DNA of 64,000 bases, from positions 94,798,001 to 94,862,000 of the forward strand of contig OX597824.1 in the NCBI GenBank assembly GCA_951406725.2. Reading direction: 5' to 3'. How positions within the stretch are numbered: the stretch's first letter is position 1; every line of letters starts with the position of its first letter. A program made the translations under genes and the position numbers. Of the stretch, positions 13,927 to 62,574 are shown piece by piece. This DNA comes from Octopus vulgaris. Lineage: Eukaryota. The notes beneath the pieces were generated by a model, which worked only from the letters and a program-made list of their open reading frames with translations, was not told the DNA's origin and ran no database searches.

Positions 13927-14407
13927 ACTTGACTTGACTTGAGACAGCATTCACCTGGGGTGGTTTGAGCTGGCTTCATTCATCCTCAATGCTGCATCTC
14001 TCACAAACACTGACCAGGCCTGGCGATTTGAGGCTAACGACTGCGTGATCTCCAACCACTCCTTATTCCAGCGGCGAACGCCATAGATAAGGGGGCCTAG
14101 GTTGGGTTCCAGGTCAGCCTTGACTGCCATCAGCCAGGTTTTTCGTTGTCCACCACATCGCTTTCGCCAACCCTGAAGCGGAGCTGGGGCAATTGCTTCG
14201 TAGATGAATTCTCCTGGTTGACGACGGAGGGCATGACCCAGCCAACGCAGATGTCTCGTTAGGATGACTTGTTGGAGGGAGGTGATTTTGCACTGGTGTC
14301 GCACCGAATTGTTGGAGACAAAGTGATGCCATTGGACACGAAAGATGCGGCGCAGACAGAGGTGATCTAAGGATTCTAGTCGCTTAATATCTTTCACCCT
14401 CAGGGTG
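13927..14407 (-). mobile_element. 5'-truncated RTE-clade LINE with 13-bp TSD
   Basis: ORF 13951-14397 (CLRRIF...LRWLGHALR...GGQRKTW) is a typical RTE ORF C-terminus. (CAAGT)n tail at 13927-13942. Exact TSD GAATAAGATCAGT at 13914-13926 and 14408-14420. Confidence 0.9.
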
Positions 14408-14934
14408 GAATAAGATCAGTGATAAACTGTTATCACCAATTTATAGCAAAATTTGCAGACAAAACCTCACTGTCCCTTGCAGCAAAAAGGAATGTAGCAC
14501 AGCAAGAAAGGGCCTTTAAGAAGAGAAAAGAACTTGCACAATACTTCTTTTTTGACAATATCCCCTATTTAAATGTAAAAGCAACTCTTGTTGAATTTGT
14601 AGTAGCAGGAACGATGCCTCCAGATGGAAAGACCATAACATATGTTAGTCATAAATTTTCTGGTACTCAGAGAAGTTGGAATGATATCTCACAGATACGT
14701 ATCATCTGATTCATGCTGGCTGGCAGAAGCACAGCTTGGATTAAGCATGAAGATGAAAAAAAACTCAGTTAACACTAATTGAATAAATTAGCTCCTAAAT
14801 ATCCCCCCCCCCCAGTCACATCTGCTAATCATGATATCATTGAATGAGCCTGTTATCACTGACTTCTCCATCCTCTCTAGAGTCACTGTTTGATCATGTG
14901 ATCCTCCACAGTGATGCTTCTGACAAGTCCAAAT

Positions 14935-16790: not shown

Positions 16791-17242
16791 GACCGTATCA
16801 AACTTATTGCATTTTGGCAAAAATATAATTTCATAATGTCCAGTCTGTTCTGTTAAAATATCTTCAATTTTGGCTACAGTATCATTTAGCATTAACAAAA
16901 TTTCAAATATATGAAATTATGGTGTCCTCAAAAAAACCCCCAAAAAAACTGCTTTTGAACTTTTTACTTGTAAACTTTCTAAAATTTGCTTAAAATTACA
17001 CCATTAATGAATGTCCCTTTTTTTTTTTATTTGAATTATTTTAGTTTTCAGTTTGCTTCAAGCAATTAAATTATTTTTGTATTTATTTATTTTTTTGTAT
17101 AGGAAGCAATATTTCTGAAATGCTGCTGGTTCGTGTATAGATGAGTTTAAAATAGAACGTGAATCCCTCTCCATTACTGCCTGTATCATCTTTAGGCATT
17201 GCAAGACCTGCTGGTGCTGCTGTTGGCTGGTACTGTCTCACC

Positions 17243-17372
17243 ATGGATCCAAACCACTGGAGTAATTACAATCAGCCCTACAGCCGAATTAACCACAATA
17301 GTACCATGCCCTCAGCCCACAGTTCCATTAACCGTTATGAACTGCCACTTTTGGATCAAGGAATCGGAACAG
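17243..17372 (+). CDS. First coding exon (MDPNHWSNYNQPYSRINHNSTMPSAHSSINRYELPLLDQGIGT) of a putative QSER1/PRR12-like gene
   Basis: Strong Kozak context (tcaccATGg) and in-frame upstream stops. Donor AG|GTAAAA at 17372/17373 is phase 1 and joins in frame to 48267 and 57318. Candidate acceptors at 17102 or 17195. Confidence 0.8.
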
Positions 17373-21636: not shown

Positions 21637-21780
21637 ATCATTTGACGTCCCTGTTTCATGTTGGCATTGGTTGGGCCATTTGACAGGGTCCAGTGTGTCC
21701 AAGGACAGTGTCAAGCCTCAATGTCTACTTTGGCACGGCTTTTAAAGCTGGATGTCCCTCCTTACACCAACCACTTTGCA
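21637..21780 (-). mobile_element. Family C retroposon (degraded) running into a minisatellite
   Basis: catcatttgacgtccctgtttcatgttggcattggttggg...gctggatgtccctccttacaccaaccact. Confidence 0.7.
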
Positions 21781-22210
21781 GCAAGTACTGGTTGCTTATC
21801 TCGTGGTACATGCACCATTGAGGCCACAGCAAGTACCGGTTGCTTTTCTCGTGGTACATGCACCATTGAGGCCACAGCAAGTACCGGTTGCTTTTCTCGT
21901 GGTACATGCACCATTGAGGCCACAGCAAGTACCGGTTGCTTTTCTCGTGGTACATGCACCATTGAGGCCACAGCAAGTACCGGTTGCTTTTCTCGTGGTA
22001 CATGCACCATTGAGGCCACAGCAAGTACCGGTTGCTTTTCTCGTGGTACATGCACCATTGAGGCCACAGCAAGTACCGGTTGCTTTTCTCGTGGTACGTG
22101 CACCATTGAGGCCACAGCAAGTACCGGTTGCTTTTCTCGTGGTACGTGCACCATTGAGGCCACAGCAAGTACCGGTTGCTTATCTCGTGGTACGTGCACC
22201 ATTGAGCCAC
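21781..22210. repeat. 48-bp minisatellite, 9 copies
   Basis: Unit gcaagtaccggttgcttttctcgtggtacatgcaccattgaggccaca at 21781, 21829 ... 22165. Confidence 0.97.
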
Positions 22211-47250: not shown

Positions 47251-48266
47251 TGGGTTATGGTATTTTTTGATATAAACCATAAAATGAAAGGGTTTTTATT
47301 TTCACTCTTTATTCTTCATACTCATGTTTGAGTGTTATGCTTTAATCAACTTTAACTGTGGAGTGATATCAAAACCAAATCAACAAAATATATTGAAACA
47401 TTGTTATGAATTTTTGCATCAAAACAGAAATGAGAAAATATATAAAATTGGAATTTCCATGGTCTTGCTAATTGAAAATAAAACAGCAGCAGTACATAGT
47501 AATTTAACGGGATAAAAAATTAATCGTACACATGTTTAATGCAATATATAAGTTAATAAATAATTTCACTAATTGCTAAAATATATCTCCTAAAATACAA
47601 ACAAATCATAATAAACTCAATAATATAAATGGTTTTTAAAATATACGTTGCTAGATTTCATATATTATTTCCTCTATGTTGTTTAGAATTTAATATCTCA
47701 TAATCATTAAAAAACTTTTTATATTGTAGGAAAATAATTCTTGAAATTCTCAATTGAAAATAAAGTTAATTAGGAAGAACTATTTTGTCAAATGCTAATC
47801 TTAAACAGATTTAGGTGTATTTGTATTATGTTTAGTATTGGATAAAAAAAAAATTTTTTTAAATAATTTAATGCCCATTTGATATAAAATAGTCTTCGAG
47901 GTTTTCAGTAAGTTCCTTCCACCACTTTTTTTTTTTTTTTGCTTGCTTCATTAAAAAAAATTTTTACTTTTTAAATTTAGCTTTTAAAAACTGTGCTTCT
48001 GAAAATATTAATAACTCTAAAAACATTGGGACTAAATGAAAGTCAAGATGTCATTTATGTAGTAACAATTTGCTCTTTATGACAAGTTGCTTGTGTTAAT
48101 TGAAGCTTTAAAACAAATCTCATTTCATTCCCAAAGCAATTTTGTTATGCATTTTATTTAAGAATAAACCATAGAGTGAGTGGGTGGATGGGCGAGTAGG
48201 TTGTGCTTTTCAGTAGCAATTAATAACTGAAAACTTACAAACTGCGTTAAAATCGTGATTTTCCAG

Positions 48267-48323
48267 CTGTTTCCTGCCTTAACCGTTATGACTTGCCGCT
48301 ACTGGATCAAGGACTTGGAACAG
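48267..48323 (+). CDS. 57-nt phase 1-1 cassette exon ((A)VSCLNRYDLPLLDQGLGT), paralogue of the 3' end of the first coding exon
   Basis: Acceptor ttttccAG| and donor AG|GTAAAT. Frame-preserving, 14/19 aa identical to 17316-17372, with mostly synonymous differences. Confidence 0.75.
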
Positions 48324-48690
48324 GTAAATAATCCTCCTTACTGCCAGTTACACTGTGCTCACTTAGTTTTTCCCCCCTTCCCCACATTGTCCCTTGCCTG
48401 AGAACTTGCAATTAAGTGACAACATTCCTCTCACAATCTTTGCAACCAAAATCATTCCAACATCGGTTGTTATTTGATGAGAGCAGCAGTTTCTCTGGTT
48501 GTAGGCTCTATGTTAATTTCATCTTGGTTTTTTTTCCAACTGTGGATGCTTTTTAAGGGTTCATTTTTTTTTTTTTACTCCTGCTAGTAATGCAATTTTC
48601 TTTTCATATCATTACCCTTTTCTATTTTTCTGTTTTTATATCTTATTTGGTAGTTACAAATTCCTCCATGTTCTAATTGTTTTTGTGCCT

Positions 48691-48734
<44 letters not shown>

Positions 48735-49592
48735 TTTTCCCCTGAAAATATTCCTCAGCTGTTTTAATAAGTTTTTGTTCATTGCTCTGCTTGCAAATTA
48801 GTTGTTGCTGATTGCTGCTTAGTTTTGTTGGTGTGTATATATATATATATGTAGTTTTGGTTTAGTTAAAGAATGTCTTCTCAGTTATTTGTCACCGGTC
48901 TAACACTAATCACAGAATTAATTTAAACAGAACATTTTTATAACTGCACTCCAAAGTGCAATTATAATACATTCCTTTCTGGCGAATTACTCAGTAAATT
49001 TATTATGCATTTATGATGAAATTCTTTGGGTGTTATTGCCTACAAACAGAGAGAATACATGGTATTAAATGCATTTACTGAAATGTTGCTTGTTATAAAA
49101 AACTTGCGAAAGCTTGTTAAAAAGGGAATGGTTTTTATTATCTTTGAGAAATCTTTCTAAACTTTAATTTGCGTTTTGGATGAAGATTATGAGTAAATTG
49201 TTGAAGTAACTGGCTCAGTAAAGCAATCAAGCTACCTCGTTAGGGAAACAAACTTTGACGACATTTCAACTGAGAAGCCGTAATAAAAGCAAGAGCTTTC
49301 AAATGTGTTTATTTGTAAAATCCATGTTGCTATGGAGAGTGTGTTAGCATATTATATTTATGAAGAAATTAAGATCGAAGATTGATATGTATCACAAAGA
49401 AAGAAAAAAATACAAAACAAAAACACCCTATACACATATATGCTATTGATTATATAGATTAGCAAACTGACATGAGCGTGATCTAATTCTAATTTACTGA
49501 GGTTGATGAGGTGCTTGACTGTAACTAACTCACAGCTCGTTAATGTGATCTGTCACAGCATCTAGTGCCATTAGGTCAAGCAGTAATTTTGA

Positions 49593-49797
49593 TTAACTCT
49601 TTATCATTTAGATTACTCTGTCAAATGTAATACTTATTTATTCACATTGTTTCGAATTAATCATGAATTATCTTGTAGCTTTGAGATTTCAATGATGTGA
49701 TTGTATATTTTTAGAATGACGTAGGGTGGATGTGAGCAGCTAGATCTGGCTGGTTTGAAAATTTAGCTAGAATATTTAGTCTGGACATGGCTAAATT
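49593..49797. mobile_element. piggyBac-type MITE (family D), right end degraded
   Basis: ttaactctttatcatttagattactctgtcaaatg... Confidence 0.75.
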
Positions 49798-50424
49798 TAC
49801 TATTCTATGTTCATTAGTTGATTTGTATAGCTACTTTATCGAAAGAATAAATAACTTGTTTCTTTAAATAACGGAGTGTAGTAGGCTTCTTTGGTACATC
49901 ATCTTTGATACCGTTTCAAAACAAGAAGGGATCTTTTCCAGGAAAGATTCATTCTACAAGTTAAATTTGGTAGTTGATATCAGTATTTCATAGATATAAT
50001 GTGATAATGTTAGAGACGTCTGACAGTGAGTTGCATGTATCCCAATGTTATTTATGAAACTTATCAGTCTTGGTGAAGAAGTTGAATGAGATGCTAGAAG
50101 ACTGAAGAAAATTTTATACTTTTTGTACTTAATAAATCTCTTCTTTGTGCACATTTTGTGATTATGTTGGTGGTGGTTAAATGATCTAATCTGTATATAA
50201 ATGATATCTTATCAAATTATTACTCTGGAGGGGGATGAAAAGCAAATTAAGCCCTGTCTGGATTTGAAATAAAAAATACTGAACTACAGAATACCAGTGG
50301 CTGGGGTATCAATCCCTATTACTTGCAGCAGTAATACCACTACCATTTAGAAAAACTGGTGGTGGGGGCTTTTAAGGAGGGAAAGTGAAAGAGAAGAAAA
50401 TGAAATTTAATCATTTTTACTAGC

Positions 50425-50731
50425 ACTTTTGCTGGTGGCACATGAAACATTCAAGTGAGGTCGTCGCCAGTGCCGCTGGACTGGCTCCTGTGCAGGTGGC
50501 ACGTAAAAAGCACCATTTGGGCGTGGCCGTTGCCAGTTCCACCAAACTGGCCCTTGTGCCGGTGGCACGTAAAAGCACCCATTACACTCTTGGACTGGCT
50601 GGCGTTAGGAAGGGCATCCAGCTGTAGAAACTCTGCCAGATCAGATTAGAGTTTGGTTCGCCAGACCTCAGTCAAATCGTCCAACCCATGCTAGCATGGA
50701 AAGCAGACGTTAAATGACGACGACGATGATG
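50425..50731 (+). mobile_element. Family C retroposon
   Basis: Subrepeats gtggcacgtaaaaagcacc, then the family body and a gacgacgatgatg tail. Confidence 0.85.
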
Positions 50732-52591
50732 TACATATTTTTGCAGAACTGCAATAAATTATTGGCAAACCGGGAGAACTAGTTCAGTTTTCAATGATAC
50801 CACTTTACTTTCTAAGAAATGTTTTATTTTTGCATATTAATAGCTGTATAGTATATACTAATAAATAACTAGTGAATTATAAAGAAATTTCATTCATTAG
50901 TTATTGTGGTTTCTTGACAAAGTATCACAAAATCCATTTATCGTTTGTTGTAACTGTTTAAGAACAAAAGTAGCTATTGTTACTATTCTGTGAAGAACCA
51001 AAATGTTTGCATTCATGTCTGAAGCCTTGTTTTTGTTCTCGTTGTTGTTGTTATCATATCACATTATCTATACTGTAATCATCATTATGTCATGTTCTGT
51101 TTTTGACCATCATTTTCATTTTGTATCACCATTTTCATCTTGCGTAACCATTAAATTTGGCCCATCAGATTTAGTATCTCTGAGTTATTGTATAGAGCCC
51201 CTCTGTACCTTTAGGGGGTAGTGCTTGCGATCTTTCTTTTTCTCATTTAATAATGTGCAATTTGGTAGGTTCTCCCTATGTACCCTAAAAAATTAAGTAC
51301 AAAAAATATTGATTTTAACAAGAAACACATTTTGTTAGTGAGAAGCTTGGGCAAATTCCTTCAGTTCCCTTCCTTTTCACTCTTCATAAGATATTCTTCG
51401 AATATGTCAGTCTTAAATTGTGAAATTGTTGTATCTGTTCATTTGGCAACAAGTTCATTATTATAAAGGGAAAACGTTAGCAACTGCACAACAAAGATAA
51501 TTTTAAGGTTTGATCAAGATTGGAGCCTGGTGCGGCCATCTGGTTCGCCAGCCCTCAGTCAAAATCGTCCAACCCATGCTAGCATGGAAAGCGAACGTTA
51601 AACAATGATGATCTGAGACCTGAAAATGTTGACCCGCAAACCCATTTTGATGGAAATCGAAGCATTGCTTGAATAAAACATTTAGCAATTTGTATGTATT
51701 TCACATCCAAAACCAAAAATCACGCAAATTCTTCTCAGTCCAGAATTATCATACTGGAGGTCTACCACTAGCTTCTCTTGCATACCTGTGCAGCCTGCAA
51801 ACAGTTGATTATTTGTGATGAAAGATTTAGAAAGTAGCCATTAAGTTTCTGTTTTCGCTTCATAAGATGCTCAGTAATGGAATTCTTTGAGTATGGTGGG
51901 GCTAAAAATCTATTGTCGATTTGAATTCTTTGTAACACGAAAGAAGGGGGGGGGATTGAAATAATTGGTAATTAGTTGGTGCTATGTAAAAAGCACCCAG
52001 CACACTCTGTAGATTGGTTGGCATTAGGAAGGGTTTCAAGATGTAGAGACAGGCAATTGGAGCCTGGTGCCGCTCTCTGGTTTGCCACCGCCACCTCACC
52101 CCAGTCCATGCCAGCATGGAAAATGGGTGTTAAATGGTGATGATGATGGTTGCATGTGTCAGTTGTTTTGTGATGAATTTATTATACTGCATGGCAGTGT
52201 ATACCATGCACAGTTGTACTCCCATACACGGTTATCTTCTTATGTAGATCTTGGGAATACGTGCACCTCCAGTTGAGAGTTTCAAATCATGTACATATTC
52301 GTCTTAATGAAGACCATCCTTCTCTCTCTAACACATAATGCCTCCCAATGTATTGGTTAGAAATTGTCTAATAAATGTTTTGTAAATGTGTTGCTATTGA
52401 TAAGCTTTCTTCCTTTGCTACCAAGACCCTAATCTTGCATTCCAGCACCTTTCTCTTGAACTCTAAATTGGGGGACTAAAAGTGTACTAAATCCTCTCTA
52501 ATGTGAGCATGTTAGAAATAATAATCTTAGTCACTGCCATGATTCTTACATTTGTAATTCAGACAATCTGTTGAATAATATAAAGCTAAAT

Positions 52592-52901
52592 AAAAAAGGG
52601 CACCATTCGAGCGTGATCGTTACCAACGTCGCCTTACTGGCACCTGTGCCGGTGGCATGTGTAAAAAGATTTGAGCTAGGTCGTTGCCAGTATCGCCTGA
52701 CTGGCCCCTGTGCCGGTGGCACGTAAAAAACAGCCACTACATTTTCGGAGTGGTTGGTGTTAGGAAGGGCATCCAGCTGTAGAAACTCTGCCAGATCATG
52801 ATTGAAGCCTGGTGCGGCCGTCTGGTTCGCCAGCTGTCAGTCAAAATCGTCCAACCCATGCTAGCATGGAAAGCGGACGCTAAACGATGATGATGATGAT
52901 A
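52592..52901 (+). mobile_element. Family C retroposon
   Basis: Reverse near-identity with 9034-9360 and a (GAT)n tail. Shorter copies at about 51515-51611 and 51983-52148. Confidence 0.85.
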
Positions 52902-53457
52902 GATACCATTAATTCTTTTAGTTTATCTGTGTTGCTTGATAAGCACTGACGGCACAGCGTCAAACAAACACCAGACAACAGCTATTGTCCATCACTTGAC
53001 CAGAATAAGAAAAACTAATTATTTCAGTCAATTATTGCAAATGAGCTGTTTTGTTCTACGTTGGATGTGAATGAAGGAATATGGCTGGGGAAAACCCTCA
53101 AGGAAGGCTCTTGAAATCTTTTGCTACATGTTTTTAGTTACAGTATCATGGACAGGAAATATTAAACTTAACAACAGATGGAGAAACTCCTGTCTGTTTT
53201 AAAAACAGTCCAAGCATGATCTAAGTTTGTTTGACTTATAAAAATCTTGGCTTGCTCCCAACTTTGTGTATATCATCAAGCTCTTTATTGGATTGTTAGA
53301 AATTAATTTGACAGGAAAGATGCATGATCACCTGAAAAGGTGTAGTGAAAAAAACAAAAACAAAAAACAAACCTTAGGTCGTTATGTTTCCAATGTAAAG
53401 TGCATGTTATTTAATGTTTTATATTTTAATGTTATTGATTTCCTTTATAAAAACAAA

Positions 53458-53629
53458 ATAGGTGCCGGAGTGGCTGTGTGGTAAGTAGCTTGCTAACCAA
53501 CCACATGGTTCCAGGTTCAGTCCCACTGTGTGGCATCTTGGGCAAGTGTCTTCTGCTATAGCCCCGGGCCGACCAATGCCTTGTGAGTGGATTTGGTAGA
53601 CGGAAACTGAAAGAAGCCTGTCGTATATA

Positions 53630-53684
<55 letters not shown>

Positions 53685-53900
53685 ATATGTTTGTGTGTCT
53701 GTGTTTGTCCCCCTAGCATTGCTTGACAACCGATGCTGGTGTGTTTACGTCCCCGTCACTTAGCGGTTCGGCAAAAGAGACTGATAGAATAAGTACTGGG
53801 CTTACAAAGAATAAGTCCCGGGGTCGATTTCCCCCGACTAAAGGCGGTGCTCCAGCATGGCCGCAGTCAAATGACTGAAACAAGTAAAAGAGTAAAGAGT
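53458..53900 (+). mobile_element. Family A tRNA-derived SINE
   Basis: Full length with (TA)n(TG)n centre and gtaaaagagtaaagagt tail. Confidence 0.9.
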
Positions 53901-54546
53901 ATAAGTTTTTGAAGCATGGAAATATACTTTATCCGGACAACCAGGATTTGAAGTTGATATAAATTATCCTAGCAGAATCCAGAATTTTCTGGCACTGGGA
54001 AAATTACAATCAGTTTTTAGTTGCCAAATTAGATTTAAAAATATAAGTTTTCCTGGAGCCTTTACACATGAAAAATTAGGCTAACTTTTAACTAAATCAT
54101 GATATATTGTTGCGACAAGCATATTGATGTTGTAGGCAAGAGTTATTGTATGATTAAAATAATCTCCAGTAAGAGAGTTTAGTAACTTTTTGTTTTGTGA
54201 GTCTTTCTGTTTTGTTTAATTTTTGCCTAAAAAAAAAAAAGAAGTCTTTCTGACCCCCACCCACCCTCCCTCTTCCTGTCTTTCTTTCTCTCTCTTTCTC
54301 ACACACTCTTCCCCCTCCCCCTAAACACCCTGGATGTTTTCACACACAAATATCATGATCATTACAATTCTTATTGTGCCTCCTGAACATAGCTGCTTCT
54401 GTCATGTACCCCAATCTTTTGTGGTTTCCTACCACTTGCAGAAACATTGCTTGCACGATGATATTTATGTTTCCAGATTCCATTGTTTGAGTTTGTGGTC
54501 TTCAGTTGTTTTAACTGGATGTGTGAGACGACTGATGGACATAGAC

Positions 54547-55305
54547 ACACCACCACCACCATTGCCACCACCACCATTGCCACCACCACCACCACCACCA
54601 TTGCCACCACCACCACCACCACCACCATTGCCACCACCACCACCACCACCACCACCACCACCACCACCACCACCACCACCACCATTGCCACCACCATTGC
54701 CACCACCACCACCACCACCATTGCCACCACCACCACCACCATTGCCGCCACCACCACCACTACCACCACCACCACCATTGCCACCACCACCACCACCACC
54801 ACCACCACCACCATTGCCACCACCATTGCCACCACCACCACCACCACCACCATTGCCACCACCATCACCACCACCACCATTGCCACCGCCGCCACCACCA
54901 CCGCCATTGCCACCACCATTGCCACCACCACCACCATTGCCACCACCATCACCACCACCACCACCACCACCATTGCCACCACCATTGCCACCACCACCAT
55001 TGCCACCACCACCACCACCACCACCACCACCACCACCACCACCACCATTGCCACCACCACCACCACCACCACCACCACCATTGCCACCACCATCACCACC
55101 ACCACCATTGCCACCACCACCACCACCATTGCCACCACCATTGCCACCACCACCACCACCATTGCCACCACCATTGCCACCGCCACCACCACCACCGCCA
55201 TCACCACCACCACCATTGCCACCACCACCACCACCACCACCACCACCATTGCCACCACCACCACCACCACCACCACCACCACCACCACCACCACCACCAC
55301 CACCA
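54547..55305. repeat. About 760-bp (CCA)n tract interrupted by TTG, TCA and CCG triplets
   Basis: Directly visible. Confidence 0.97.
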
Positions 55306-56040
55306 TTATATGTCATTGTTTTCTTGGTTTCCTTCCTGATGCTTCTGTAGAATAGAGAATAGGATATGATTCCATTGAGCTTCAGCAGTTGTTTTTTCTT
55401 GTTCTTTTTGCTTTTTTTCTCAATGACATTATGATATATAAAAAAAAAACAAAAAAGGGGGGTAGAAATTCATGTCTGTATACTAGGGTTGGGTTGTCTA
55501 TGACTGTCCTGTCCAGCAGACATTTTCTATGTTTCTTTTCAATGTAGTGAGATATGTATTTTAAAATATGTAATTTGCCTTGAACAAGTTGTTTGCCTGA
55601 CATGTTAATAGTTAAATTCAGATCAAGTTCATTTGATGTTTTGCTGTCCCTTTTGCCTCTAAGCATTTAAGTTAAATGTTCTTAGTGCCTAGCCATAAAA
55701 CACTGTAAGATACTGATCTAAATTCCTTGTTGATAATTACGATAATAAGAATTTATTTTGGCATAAATTGTTTCTATATTCTTTACTTATTTATATTTCG
55801 TTCTTTGTTACTTGATTTTCATTTTTAAAGTCTTCTGCAGGAAATAAAATTTTCTTTCCTCATTTAAATTCTATATCTTCAAATATTGTCTTAATTATTT
55901 TTTCTCGTTTCCGTAATATAAAAATCGGTTATTTTTTCCCAAGTTTAAATTATATTAATGATAACACAATGAAACTGTAATAATTAGAAGATGCCAGGCT
56001 ATCGGTGATAGTTATGAGTTTGAATTTTTCTCCAAATATT

Positions 56041-56477
56041 AGTTAGTTAGTTAAGTTAGTTAATTTTTTGGCTCAAAAGCAAAAAGCAAGGCCATGTAGG
56101 GGGACATGGGTGGTGTTCCTGTAAAGAGTTCAGGCCACTTGAGGTCAAGGGAGACTTAGAACAAAGCGGTCGTCAGCATCTTCACTATCTCGTCTGGCAG
56201 CTTGTTCCACGGATCCGCAACCCGGATGGAGAAAACTCCTCGCCTTCGATTGAGATAAAATCGTCGCAGGTAGAGCTTTTCGGAGTGACCCCGCAGCCAA
56301 CGCTCTGGAGCAGGAGGGAAGAACAGCTCTTTCGAGAGGTTACACTTTCCGCTTATGATGTTGTGAGCGAGAATGAGATCACCACGGCAGCAGCGTTTTT
56401 CTAGAGAATAAAGGTCGAGCGTCTTCAGCCTTTCTTCATAAGACAAATTCTTGAGACCAAGAACCATGCGGGTAGCC
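56041..56477 (-). mobile_element. 5'-truncated CR1-clade LINE 3' end
   Basis: ATRMV.GL..LSYEERL..L.LYSLE.R..RGDLI...RGHS.KL...FS.RV...WN.LP is the canonical CR1 ORF2 C-terminus. (TAAC)n tail at 56041-56062. Possible ATATT TSD. Confidence 0.9.
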
Positions 56478-57101
56478 ATATTGTGAGATATCTTATTGTA
56501 TGATGTAGTAAATTGACTGCTTTAGTTTGTCCACCTGAAAATAGCTTCCATCTTCACTTGCTGATTCAGAGATTAGCATCAAGAGGGCCATCTAGTTTCA
56601 GCAACTTTTTGAGTCTTAACATTCGCAAAAAGGAACCACCACCCTGTACAGCAGCTGCGATAAAAGAAGCAAAGTGATAACTTTAATTTTATAATTCATT
56701 GAGAATTCATTTTGTGTTCAAGCTGCCTTTTCCTGGCAGGTATTTATCAAGCACAAATTCTGTTGATTATAATATTTGTTTCTCTCATCGGCATTATTAT
56801 GCTTTGATTAAATTAAAGTATCTCACACTGCTTATTATAAAACAGATATTTAGATTGTAAGGAACCAGAATACTTGTGGTACATGTTGGATTGATATGTA
56901 AATTCTGACCTGTTTATTTTGAATGTAGAAATTAATCTTATATTTGTTATCCTCATTACAAAAGAAAGACATGTCTTAAAAAGATAAATGTTTGATTAAA
57001 TATTAACCATAGAAATAAAGGAATAGAAACATCAATGAACTTCATTCGTTTTAGTAAAAAATATTTTAGTTCTTAATGTTAAATTTATTCATCTTACACA
57101 T

Positions 57102-57150
<49 letters not shown>

Positions 57151-57317
57151 GTAATTTAGTTTGAAAAAGAAACTGTTAAAAATCCAAATAGCTATGTTTT
57201 GAGAATCCTTTTCCAAATATTGACCCTTTTTTTTTTCTATCTAGAAATACGAACACAAAATTCAATAACTTCCTTTGGCATTTGTCTCAATGTTTTTTCT
57301 TTCTTTTTTCTTTGTAG

Positions 57318-60300
57318 GTCTAGGGGCATTGTCCCCATCTCTCTCCCCACATACAAGTTTACCACCAGCTCGTGGTCTTGGGGGTATTCCCCAAGTAAAC
57401 TATGGCCATCCATTACACAATTCAGTCACTCAGTTTTTGGATAGTATGAATCTACAATCATCCTTCCCTAGCCAATCACATTACAAACCGGTTCCCACCT
57501 CTTTTCCTTTTGATTCAGCTCCTCGGTCATCGGCAGAACAACCAACCTGTTACAGCTCGGGGAGGTACGTGACCTCCTCTCACAGTGGAGTTCCTGCTCA
57601 CAGTAAATCTCTCTTCAATCAAGATTTTCATTCAAGCAAAGATTTAGCCAGCAGCCTCACCCCATCTCCTATGTCACCCAATCCTCATGTTCCTGAAGCA
57701 AGTAGCAAAAGCTGGAGTCTGTCTAATTTTGTCCCAACCTCATCAAATCCCTTTGCAAATCTCACTAACGAGCTCTCTGGACCAGGAAATTATGCGCCAG
57801 CGTCTCCTAGTCCCCAACAACACATTCCTCCCCCAGCTCACAGCACCAACAGAGCAATCAGTAGTCTTTCTCAAAGAAGCCCCTACCAGCCAGACCCTAT
57901 CTACTGTTCAACTTCTCTACCTAGTAGTAAGTCGGTTCCATCTCCACAGTTACCGCCAGTCTATAGCCGCACCACTTCACAATCAACAAAACCGGCCCAC
58001 TCGCCACAGTTGCCTTCTTCATACAATATGTCCAACATGAATCATGAGCAACAACAACCTGCTACCCCCCTCTCTCAACCTCCAACACCAAGACCATCAA
58101 ATTATTCTTCCCCCCAGGACTTGGAAAATATGTCTGGCTCACAGTCACCCATGTATGATCCCTACAGCTGCATCAGTACTAAAAGTTATTCTGTAGCATC
58201 TAGTGCTCCCACTTACTCTTCTGTAAATCATGTGACACCCGAGATGGGCTATGATCCTGTTAGTCCAACTCAACCACTCTCCGAACAACCATCTCAACAG
58301 CATCAACAGGGGGATTCTTTCTGTACAGTCTCTTTGCAAGATTTGGCTTCAATTGGATCTAGTCAAGACCGCATGCAAGATATGAAAAATCGAGAAAGTG
58401 TGTTGCTTCAAGAAACCTCTCATATCATGCTGCACAGTACTGCCAATAAGGGAGTCTCTCCTTCACTTTCTGATCTGCAGCAGACTGTCCAGAGTATCAC
58501 CTCACGCCCTCAGACTATTCCAGCAGCACACAACATGCATAATGGCCAACTTTCTCAAAGTGTTCACAGTCCCATGCAGCAATCACCTATCAGTGTGGGG
58601 AGTCCGCAGGCTCCAATAGCACTTGGAAGCCCGCAGACTCCTCTTCCCAGTTCCACTATAGTGCAAGCACCTCCTCCAGTTCAAGCGGTTGCTGATTCAA
58701 CAACCAAACCCAAACGTGGACGTGGACGCAAGAAGAAAGACATAATTTATGACAAAGCTCTTGAACTTGGACAAGAACATTTATTTAATGAAGAACCCCT
58801 AAATATGACGCAAGGAACAGCCAATGTATTCCCCAACATGGCACAAGTGATGTCGCAACAGTGCCATGACACCCTTCCTCCACAACCATTAACTGAAGAT
58901 ACCCTGAGCCCCACTTACCAAGACCACGTTGACGAACAGCGACTCAAAGTTCAGAACGTCAGTCCTGTTTTAGACCCTTCTTTATCTGTCGGTCGCTTAA
59001 ATGACCACCACCAGGATGCATCTCCTGTAAGTATGCAACAGTTTTCAGTACGAGGTAATGTTGAGAGCTCTCAACATGGATCTGATCATGTGACAAACAT
59101 GCACCCCCCATCAGTATCTGGTAGTATTGGTAGTCCACAAGGTGTTTTATCGGAGGATATGCCCAGTGCCGCTACACCTCTCTCTGAACGTATTGAACAG
59201 CCATCTGCCATTACTGACCAATACTCAGATAGTTTAACTCCACCCACAACAACGCCAGATCTACCAGATATTCAGAACTATGGTATGAGGCGCTTGACTG
59301 AATCATCTTATGTTAATACGATGGCATCCCAACTTGGCCCCGGCCAGATGAATTTGCACCAGCAGGATCCAATGTGCCAAGACAGTATGACGCTTTCTAA
59401 GCAGAATGCATCTTTGCAAATGCAACCTCCTCCATCTTACATGAACTTCTCTCAGGTATCAACGCCAAAAGATTTGGTACCTGCTTCTAACAGTTTTGAA
59501 GATTTAGCTATGGATAAAGATGGTGATGCACCCGAATTCGATGATTTAGTTGATGCCAACACTGCTGATACGAAGCGACAGTTGCTCTCTCAAGAAGACG
59601 AGACCATTGGAGCAGCTATGGCTACCATTTCTGCTGACTTCTCTTTGTCCGATAAAAAGCAAAAAAGAAGTCGTACTAAAGCAGAACAAAAACAAATGCC
59701 TACCAATGTAATAGCTGTTACACTCCAGGCTGAGTTTGATGAAGAATTCCAACACTTGCAAGATAAAGTTATGCTTGATGGTGAACTGCTGAGAAAAACG
59801 GAGAATAAATCCAAAAAGTGTTTTGATGCTTTCCAAGAAAGCTACATAAATTTCTTACAAGGTAAAAAAACAGAGACGCTCTCCAGCCTGAGTTATTCTA
59901 ATATTACTAGACGCACCCATGCTACGAAATATGATCCAAGGTTTTATAATTCTATATTAAATAATTTGCCAGTTGGTGATTTTGGAACTGGGTATAAAAG
60001 ACCTCTTACTACTACAACAGATTTGGGCAGTTCTAAATTGAATGATACATTGGGCATGAATCAGCCTGCAACCCCTTTTTCTGATGAGGAGAACAGTATT
60101 AATACAGTTGAAGATTTATTTCAGAATCTTTGTGATAACTTTGAATCTGACAATCAGATGCATAGACAGTCAGTAGAGTTTGGACGGGGTCCTCGTCGTG
60201 GGCGGGGAGGCCGTGGCAGTAGAGGGCCCCGTGCAAAACGAGCACGTGGTAGGAGCCGAACTTTCTCTGGTGAAAGAGAAGTTATGGAGTTCTTTGATAA

Positions 60301-60413
60301 AGGAACAACAGAAAACGATGTTGAAAAACCCATTGTACCTGTGTTACCTTTAAGGCAAACTTCTTCTCGTAAGGCAAAAGAAAAAACCCTCACACGAAGA
60401 AAGCGCAAAAATG
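57318..60413 (+). CDS. 3096-nt internal coding exon of a Ser/Pro/Gln-rich nuclear protein, putatively QSER1/PRR12-like
   Basis: Open for over 1000 codons of non-repetitive sequence. Acceptor ttcttttttctttgtAG| and donor G|GTAAGT, phase 1-1. Contains an AT-hook-like KPKRGRGRKKK, an RG-rich segment and FQESYINFLQGKK. The exon is well supported; the family call is from memory and much less certain. Confidence 0.9.
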
Positions 60414-60944: not shown

Positions 60945-61549
60945 TATATTTGTCATAATTTTAACCAAAAAAAAGAAAAAAAAAGTAGAGATGGTTCTAA
61001 AAAAAATTTGGAACTCTTCAGACTGATATCATGTTAAACTTAAATTACATTCTATGTTTTCCTGTGATTATAATTGTTTCCATAGCAATTACATGAGGTG
61101 TGGGATTGTGTGAAATAGCACTTGTATTATGAGAACAACATTTTTTAACGGATAATATATCATCATTATTCTTAGATGAACTTATTCACTGTTGTAATAT
61201 TGTAATTTCTGAGAATTTCTGTGATTTTCAGTCTGGTTCAATTCACATCTGTGTGAATAAAGTGCCAAGAGTGTTATGGCAGACCATCAGATTTTTAGAA
61301 GTTTTGTAACATATAAAAATGAAACGAGAGCATTAAAATTGTTTTAAAACAAACACGAGTGCACACATTGCACTTTGTTTCAAAGGAATATGCACTCACT
61401 GGGTGTAGTGTATGAACGAAAAAGGTGCAACTTGCACTGGCGTAAATGTTGTTAGTACTTAACAGATTGGGCAGAAAGACTACAGAGTCGAGACATTGAA
61501 AGTGGTTCCATCTCCACAGTTAACTCCAGTCTAAAGAAGCACTACTTCC

Positions 61550-62532
61550 CAATCGACAAAACTGGCCCACTTGCCACAGTTGCCCCTTTCATATGTCCAG
61601 CAGGGCACAATCGACAAAACTGGCCCACTCGCCACAGTTGCCCCTTTCATATGTCCAGCAGGGCACAATCGACAAAACTGGCCCACTCGCCACAGTTGCC
61701 CCTTTCATATGTCCAGCAAGGCACAATTGACAAAACTGGCCCACTTGCCACAGTTGCCCCTTTCATATGTCCAGCAGGGCACAATCGACAAAACTGGCCC
61801 ACTCGCCGCAGTTGGCCTTTTCATATGTCCAGCAAGGCACAATCGACAAAACTGGCCCACTTGCCACAGTTGCCCCTTTCATATGTCCAGCAGGGCACAA
61901 TCGACAAAACTGGCCCACTTGCCACAGTTGCCCCTTTCATATGTCCAGCAGGGCACAATCGACAAAACTGGCCCACTCGCCGCAGTTGCCCCTTTCATAT
62001 GTCCAGCAGGGCACAATCGACAAAACTGGCCCACTTGCCACAGTTGCCCCTTTCATATGTCCAGCAAGGCACAATTGACAAAACTGGCCCACTTGCCACA
62101 GTTGCCCCTTTCATATGTCCAGCAGGGCACAATCGACAAAACTGGCCCACTCGCCACAGTTGCCCCTTTCATATGTCCAGCGGGGCACAATCGACAAAAC
62201 TGGCCCACTTGCCACAGTTGCCCCTTTCATATGTCCAGCAGGGCACAATTGACAAAACTGGCCCACTCGCCACAGTTGCCCCTTTCATATGTCCAGCAAG
62301 GCACAATCGCAAAACTGGCCCACTTGCCACAGTTGCCCCTTTCATATGTCCAGCAAGGCACAATCGACAAAACTGGCCCACTTGCCACAGTTGCCCCTTT
62401 CATATGTCCAGCGGGGCACAATCGACAAAACTGGCCCACTCGTCACAGTTGCCCCTTTCATATGTCCAGCAGGGCACAATCGACAAAACTGGCCCACTCG
62501 CCACTGTTGCCCCTTTCATATGTCCAGCAGGG
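61550..62532 (+). repeat. 58-bp minisatellite, about 17 copies, derived from the gene's own exon
   Basis: Unit caatcgacaaaactggcccacttgccacagttgcccctttcatatgtccagcagggca. Unit and flanks match exon sequence 57930-58065. Confidence 0.95.
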
Positions 62533-62574
62533 ATTATGAGCAACGACAATCTGCTACATTTTTTTAGTAATACT

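Follow-up and report, generated by a model that had tools for sequence, protein, structure and literature searches.

The 64,000-nt stretch of the Octopus vulgaris genome analyzed here (the window) contains two 57-nt segments, 31 kb apart, that encode similar peptides, which raises the questions of whether the second segment is an exon, how it arose, and what a second copy of such a short peptide contributes to the protein. As the first-pass annotation had reported, the segments lie at 17316–17372 and 48267–48323 and are each preceded by CAG and followed by GTAAA; it also gave both peptides correctly, except that the reading begins one base earlier, at 17315 and 48266, both segments being in phase 1 at both ends. 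The two peptides are identical at 14 of 19 residues, and a recount of the last 14 codons returned the same 8 identical codons, 4 synonymous differences and 2 replacements. The TAA at 48248 is indeed the nearest in-frame stop upstream of the second copy. At the DNA level, the copies are connected by an alignment of 50 nt that is 86% identical (E = 2.6e-11 in the window) and ends at the donor; the first 11 nt align poorly, and the sequences flanking the two copies do not align. Because of this E-value, and because these were the only two places found when the whole 2.8-Gb genome was searched (a count that is a lower bound), the match is not attributable to chance. The upstream segment is a 57-nt parent as proposed, but it is not a separate exon: it is the terminal 57 nt of the 270-nt exon carrying the ATG. 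The exons and introns of the gene are as follows.

17103–17372, plus strand: first coding exon, 270 nt, with the ATG at 17244 and 43 codons plus one base
17289–17315, plus strand: latent acceptor-like sequence within the parent exon, with CAG at 17313–17315
17316–17372, plus strand: parent copy of the motif, residues 25–43, at the 3′ end of the first coding exon
17373–48266, plus strand: intron of 30,894 nt, GT..AG, phase 1, seen in joined form in contigs
48267–48323, plus strand: 57-nt cassette exon in phase 1-1 that supplies residues 44–62, the second copy of the motif
48324–57317, plus strand: intron of 8,994 nt, GT..AG, phase 1
57318–60413, plus strand: large exon of about 1,030 residues, with an S-, Q- and P-rich composition and RGR (AT-hook-like) motifs
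Beyond the window, L005–L011: 14 further coding exons, residues 1094–1659, including a duplicated domain and DUF4211

Splicing was analyzed in 8 of the 20 listed sequencing runs, as assembled contigs. The records carry no RNA label; runs whose contigs bridge GT..AG introns were termed RNA-like. The join 17372–48267 was present in all seven RNA-like runs, so that both copies were connected in one transcript in 7/7, and the join 48323–57318 was seen directly in each of the four runs with contigs over the cassette. In these four runs, which come from four studies, the cassette was contained in a 110-nt contig whose loose ends corresponded to the exon end at 17372 and the exon start at 57318. In run X3, inclusion was represented by a 110-nt contig at depth 109 and skipping by a 53-nt contig at depth 43, and this was the one run among three RNA-like runs covering the donor in which the skip join 17372–57318 was seen directly; X7 and X17 showed inclusion only, within long contigs, and in the DNA-like run X15 the donor at 17372 was read through unspliced. 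With 7 nt in common between the two exon ends, a splice bubble assembled at k = 31 is calculated to have arms of 110 and 53 nt, exactly as found, and the contig ends and bubble geometry imply that the skip path is also present in the four runs that cover the cassette. All three junctions entailed by the first-pass proposal (17372–48267, 48323–57318 and 17372–57318) were thus recovered in contigs. These data indicate that 48267–48323 is a real, frame-preserving cassette exon, coding by way of splicing, as had been predicted: both of its joins were found in 4/4 runs and the reading frame is kept.

Protein models gave the same picture. In the Octopus protein cluster, 10 of the 11 members have an N-terminus, of which six contain both copies, four the first copy only and none the second copy only. 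Pairs of isoforms differing by exactly these 19 residues exist in O. sinensis (P0032/P0028), O. bimaculoides (P0034/P0035) and O. vulgaris (P0033/P0030); the O. vulgaris models may derive from this same assembly and were not taken as independent. Contigs and isoform models therefore agree with the earlier proposal that splicing toggles the N-terminus between one and two copies of the motif. The second copy had been called optional, which is right, yet inclusion of both copies seems to predominate; the depths in X3 correspond to roughly 70% inclusion, a rough figure given that depth is unreliable and that the depth of the shared exon (100) is below the sum of the two arms. The pyrimidine tract of the cassette acceptor (10/17) is weaker than those of the flanking acceptors (13/17 and 16/17), which fits partial inclusion. 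The cassette contained no variant letters in the contigs of four runs, which would not by themselves exclude RNA editing. Assignment of the cassette to the microexons, whose length limit is about 27–51 nt, was rejected because 57 nt is too long.

The first-pass annotation had further suggested that the copies might be swapped, through another upstream exon or donor. Homologous substitutions at the N-terminus are indeed common among human duplicated-exon events (PMC9741552, as far as its available text goes), but at this locus 17372 was the sole upstream partner of the cassette in 4/4 runs, no model among the ten with an N-terminus carried the cassette without the parent copy, and the parent copy belongs to the ATG exon. 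Contigs lose rare forms, so a rare swap or rare junction could be missed; even so, we regard use of the copies as mutually exclusive or alternative first exons as very improbable indeed. Mutually exclusive exons leave one copy per transcript, whereas here both copies occur together. The features expected of an additive duplicated exon are all present, namely homology to part of an exon, symmetric phase, both copies in a single transcript and outgroups with a single copy.

The exon 17103–17372 matches residues 1–44 of Octopus proteins. Contigs of three RNA-like runs span exactly 17103–17372, which is preceded by TAG, and continue 126–176 nt in the 5′ direction with other sequence (126 nt in X3 and X17, 176 nt in X7). 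This extension indicates at least one unmapped upstream exon, perhaps in two forms, and the 5′ sequence likely represents one or more non-coding exons. A second in-frame ATG occurs at 17307, directly ahead of the parent motif, and the proteins P0003 and P0037 begin at a Met matching this ATG, perhaps by truncation. Several repeats were also observed in the introns of the window: a tandem array at 21779–22210 with a 48-bp unit (9 copies, 98% identity), a 760-bp CAC-rich run at 54548–55305 that yields long spurious ORFs, and a 58-bp array at 61500–62557. The last comprises 17 copies derived from the coding sequence 57929–58065 of the large exon (80–89% identical) and constitutes a third partial-exon copy in the gene; a stop and indels occur in its aligned parts, and it is absent from all the models compared. 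On the minus strand, open stretches at 13954–14415 and 56159–56521 bear a putative resemblance to the C-terminal end of LINE reverse transcriptases.

The identity of the gene was assessed from the large exon and the exons beyond the window. The large exon, which begins at 57318, has 98% identity with a protein of Octopus bimaculoides and 99.8–99.9% with proteins that carry the names O. vulgaris and O. sinensis. It also matches molluscan PF13926 proteins, some of which are named QSER1-like or PRR12 in their sources. DUF4211 scored 63.9 bits against a Pfam cut-off of 27, and the best Atlas cluster, with a score of 0.93, is named QSER1 family; DUF4211 alone does not suffice to assign the family, because it is also present in a CCD82-named cluster. 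A search of the octopus genome itself with PF13926 gave no match, the domain being split over short exons and the controls likewise silent. The S-, Q- and P-rich composition, together with AT-hook-like motifs (six RGR-type matches in the large exon), gives the protein the low-complexity arm of this family. Taken together, these similarities mark the gene as a QSER1/PRR12-like DUF4211 gene, which likely encodes a chromatin regulator. According to the available portion of a recent report, mammalian PRR12 binds cohesin and NIPBL via its C-terminal part, which in the human protein is sufficient for binding both, and its first 1564 residues are predicted to be unstructured (bioRxiv 2024.03.29.587394). 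QSER1, a paralog of PRR12, is described in the accessible part of its source as guarding DNA from de novo methylation together with TET1 (PMC12648955). As far as the available texts describe them (PMC12648955, PMC11050278, bioRxiv 2024.03.29.587394), the human proteins share with the octopus protein a long low-complexity arm, followed by a folded domain and then a C-terminal DUF4211, and AT-hook-like motifs are described for human PRR12 as well. The N-terminal profile had no vertebrate sequence among its named matches.

To follow the two copies through the family, a motif profile was built from 12 non-cephalopod rows and applied, with a cut-off of 8 bits, to the first 150 residues of 86 proteins longer than 900 residues. 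Two tandem-repeat ORFs, P0077 (11 matched stretches) and P0078 (9), gave spurious motif matches and are unrelated; P0077 was omitted from the 86 and P0078 fell under the length limit. Two matches were found in 8 of the 14 cephalopod rows and in none of the 72 others, Nautilus not being among the named rows and gene models being able to miss a short exon. Among the 72 non-cephalopod rows, 31 had one match and 41 were below the cut-off; many of the latter are truncated, but several, including Aplysia, Mytilus and Lingula, are full length, indicating that the motif can erode or vanish. In other molluscs and a nemertean, a single copy occupies the place of the parent. Babylonia (P0024/P0058) and Nucella (P0025/P0064) each have two DUF4211 family proteins, one of each pair with an eroded N-terminal motif.

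The eight two-copy rows include two proteins from transcript assemblies, P0003 and P0037. P0003 is 77.5% identical to the O. sinensis protein, and in a quick tree of 21 rows P0002 and P0003 together were sister to three Octopus species. The split of octopuses from squid and cuttlefish is dated at 285–340 million years, and the shallower split used for comparison at 13–34 million years, in the portions of the two sources available (PMC10925132, PMC10700109). Set against these dates, the divergence of P0003 makes it likely a squid or cuttlefish, with a deep octopodiform as a possibility. Each copy is identical to its counterpart in P0003 at 18 of 19 residues, compared with 14 of 19 between the copies, which fits one old duplication. 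The duplication would predate the split of Octopus from the lineage of P0003, which is likely on the squid/cuttlefish side, and the second copy would have been kept for probably hundreds of millions of years. A search of metagenome contigs with a degenerate DNA pattern of the motif, aimed at finding the exon in another cephalopod, gave 0 matches.

The first-pass annotation had attributed the similarity of the copies to purifying selection, and this interpretation was upheld: dN/dS between the copies was 0.25 over 19 codons (Fisher p = 0.016), and conservation in relatives extends to the distant cephalopod P0003, with its 18 retained cassette residues. Over the last 14 codons, a window picked post hoc, dN/dS was 0.10. 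An alternative is that the exon is real but near-neutral, a tolerated insert in a flexible arm that is held by its splicing signals rather than by its peptide. The erosion of the motif in many molluscs and the production of both isoforms agree with such an insert, and the synonymous identity between the copies, 8/14 compared with 4.7 expected at saturation, may reflect constraint at the DNA level. However, the differences between the copies are mostly synonymous, as the dN/dS value shows, and the cassette is better retained in P0003 than the large exon, of which 75% is identical (residues 121–1100), although 19% of 19-residue windows are as conserved as the cassette. We consider this alternative unlikely and favor retention of the second copy for its peptide.

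With regard to origin, the 43 frame-preserving positions in the coding part of the first exon include two with AG and a single one with CAG, and this CAG sits exactly 57 nt from the donor; a branch-point-like YTNAY occurs 27 nt upstream of it. The CAG at 17313–17315 was not used as an acceptor in the parent exon, since no contig break was found there in the 3/3 RNA-like runs that cover it. Five short ORFs of other animals span Met and motif without interruption and part from the family sequence about 10–14 residues after the start of the motif core, and several others start at the GLG right behind the motif. From these proteins, the ancestor may be reconstructed as one exon with an intron straight behind the motif. 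The cassette is probably a copy of the 3′ portion of the ATG exon, donor included. According to this model, that portion would have been duplicated downstream along with the donor, the latent exonic CAG of the duplicate would have become the acceptor of the cassette, and the introns on either side would then have lengthened. With a donor already in place and a latent CAG a multiple of three bases away, the duplicate would have been includable with the frame intact. Where the acceptor came from is less certain, because alignment between the copies is poor over their first 11 nt. It might instead be supposed that a separate 57-nt ancestral exon was duplicated whole and that the intron before the first copy was lost afterwards, in which case the equal length and the CAG before both copies need no coincidence. 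This account requires one additional event, and it conflicts with the exon structure suggested by the five short ORFs, in which Met and motif are not interrupted; we judge it improbable, and duplication of part of the exon is preferred.

In 23 rows chosen for a recognizable core, the core of the motif reads [FLI]-P-[LI]-L-[DENA]-[QA], with L in 23/23 and P in 21/23. The longer motif NRYxLPLLDQG proposed at first thus holds in its conserved core but not as a whole across relatives. In the same selected rows, the motif stands out as a conserved hydrophobic island within a variable arm. When 1.84 billion representatives were searched with a profile, 24 matches were obtained, two of them the spurious repeats P0077 and P0078; the named ones are molluscs, a nemertean and a brachiopod, and none of the named rows lay outside lophotrochozoan-like sequences. 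The N-terminus gave no match by sequence to the PDB and none to the Atlas, and among 1,564 candidates no shorter protein with residues 1–120 scored. Judging from its conservation, the peptide is likely a binding motif; whether the cassette doubles a protein-binding (docking) motif is, on the sequence evidence, an even bet. In such a case, the hydrophobic core would lie in the low-complexity arm of a nuclear QSER1/PRR12-like protein, and inclusion would leave copy 1 beside the N-terminal motif and place copy 2 beside the downstream motif. Two docking copies might provide higher avidity or engage two partners, and skipping would return the ancestral one-copy layout.

Two observations weigh against a core role of the motif: its erosion in several molluscs, and the position of the cassette outside the only tested region of PRR12, given that the C-terminal part suffices for binding cohesin and NIPBL. 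The second copy might instead have a job of its own, with either the cysteine-containing stretch at its start, which sets it apart from the parent, or an R-x-x-L sequence serving as a modification site or degron that alters turnover. R-x-x-L is the pattern of the APC/C D-box degron, and both cephalopod copies carry it; the five residues that begin the cassette, the stretch in which it departs most from the parent, are also identical in P0003. R-x-x-L is present, though, in 9 of the 23 family rows only, while the hydrophobic core is nearly invariant, and the cassette retains a D that is present in Lineus and Solemya, so that its core looks ancestral and not new. We consider a separate function unlikely. 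Overall, we favor the reading of 48267–48323 as a partial-exon cassette that adds a second copy of a likely docking motif, to which we assign a probability of about 0.55.

The cassette is one of two cephalopod-only duplications in this gene. Residues 1371–1460 repeat residues 1211–1295 at 64% identity, and a domain of about 90 residues ahead of DUF4211 is thereby duplicated on pairs of exons of matching phases.

L007, 1660–1797 and 5144–5272, beyond the window: duplicated-domain exons, one copy
L010, 2444–2584 and 4247–4375, beyond the window: duplicated-domain exons, the other copy

This domain may correspond to the ‘binding domain 1’ of PRR12, judging from a placement ahead of DUF4211 and some resemblance. 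Among 66 proteins longer than 1150 residues, the domain is present twice in eight cephalopod rows, two rows end before it and all 56 others contain it once; the available text on PRR12 describes one such domain, in contrast to the two at this position in cephalopods. The first copies of Octopus and P0003 cluster together (support 99) and are 70.5% identical, whereas the second copies are 96.6% identical, so that the first copy changes faster than the second. The models P0031 and P0027 are without the 46-residue exon of the first copy, which is thus apparently switchable, judging from gene models. Synonymous identity is alike in the two duplications (8/14 for the motif, 28/53 for the domain), which fits a similar age. 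It is conceivable, if rather doubtful, that early coleoids rebuilt a QSER1/PRR12 factor by two duplications within the gene, of a docking motif and of the domain predicted in PRR12 to contact the cohesin loader NIPBL, each switchable by an optional exon. If this were true, splicing would set the number of contact modules in each tissue and would be a candidate lever in cephalopod chromatin regulation. In any event, two module doublings, both confined to cephalopods and apparently switchable, coexist in a single likely chromatin regulator.

The literature examined assigns no function to the N-terminal arm of QSER1/PRR12. We found no paper on exon duplication with alternative splicing in cephalopods, in a search with little coverage of subscription journals and supplementary splicing tables, and none on QSER1 in cephalopods or DUF4211 in molluscs, again largely without subscription journals. 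The isoforms are already in public annotation, and no description of them as a duplication was found. The cassette points to an unstudied motif, for which the one- and two-copy isoforms offer a built-in comparison for finding its partner, and it provides a clean natural example of an exon likely born from part of an older exon via a latent splice site.

Among known systems, the tandem duplicated exon substitutions likewise involve old, conserved homologous exons in alternative splicing, to judge from the available part of the report (PMC9741552); those exons replace each other, whereas the octopus copies co-occur in a transcript, 31 kb apart, as an addition. The nearest described case that we found is exon H2d of the vertebrate COE/EBF genes (PMC2394523), and the following comparison is limited to the accessible portion of that source. 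In both cases, a nuclear regulator has gained, in one lineage, a duplicated exon that supplies a second copy of a motif in tandem. In COE/EBF, one cryptic splice site fixed the phase and made H2d includable, and skipping would restore the ancestral form. The two differ in that the whole exon was copied in COE/EBF and a new donor came into use, whereas in octopus part of an exon with a latent acceptor was likely copied; the octopus motif, unlike that of H2d, sits in a low-complexity arm. Finally, within that portion, the authors found no skipping of H2d, whereas the octopus cassette is skipped.
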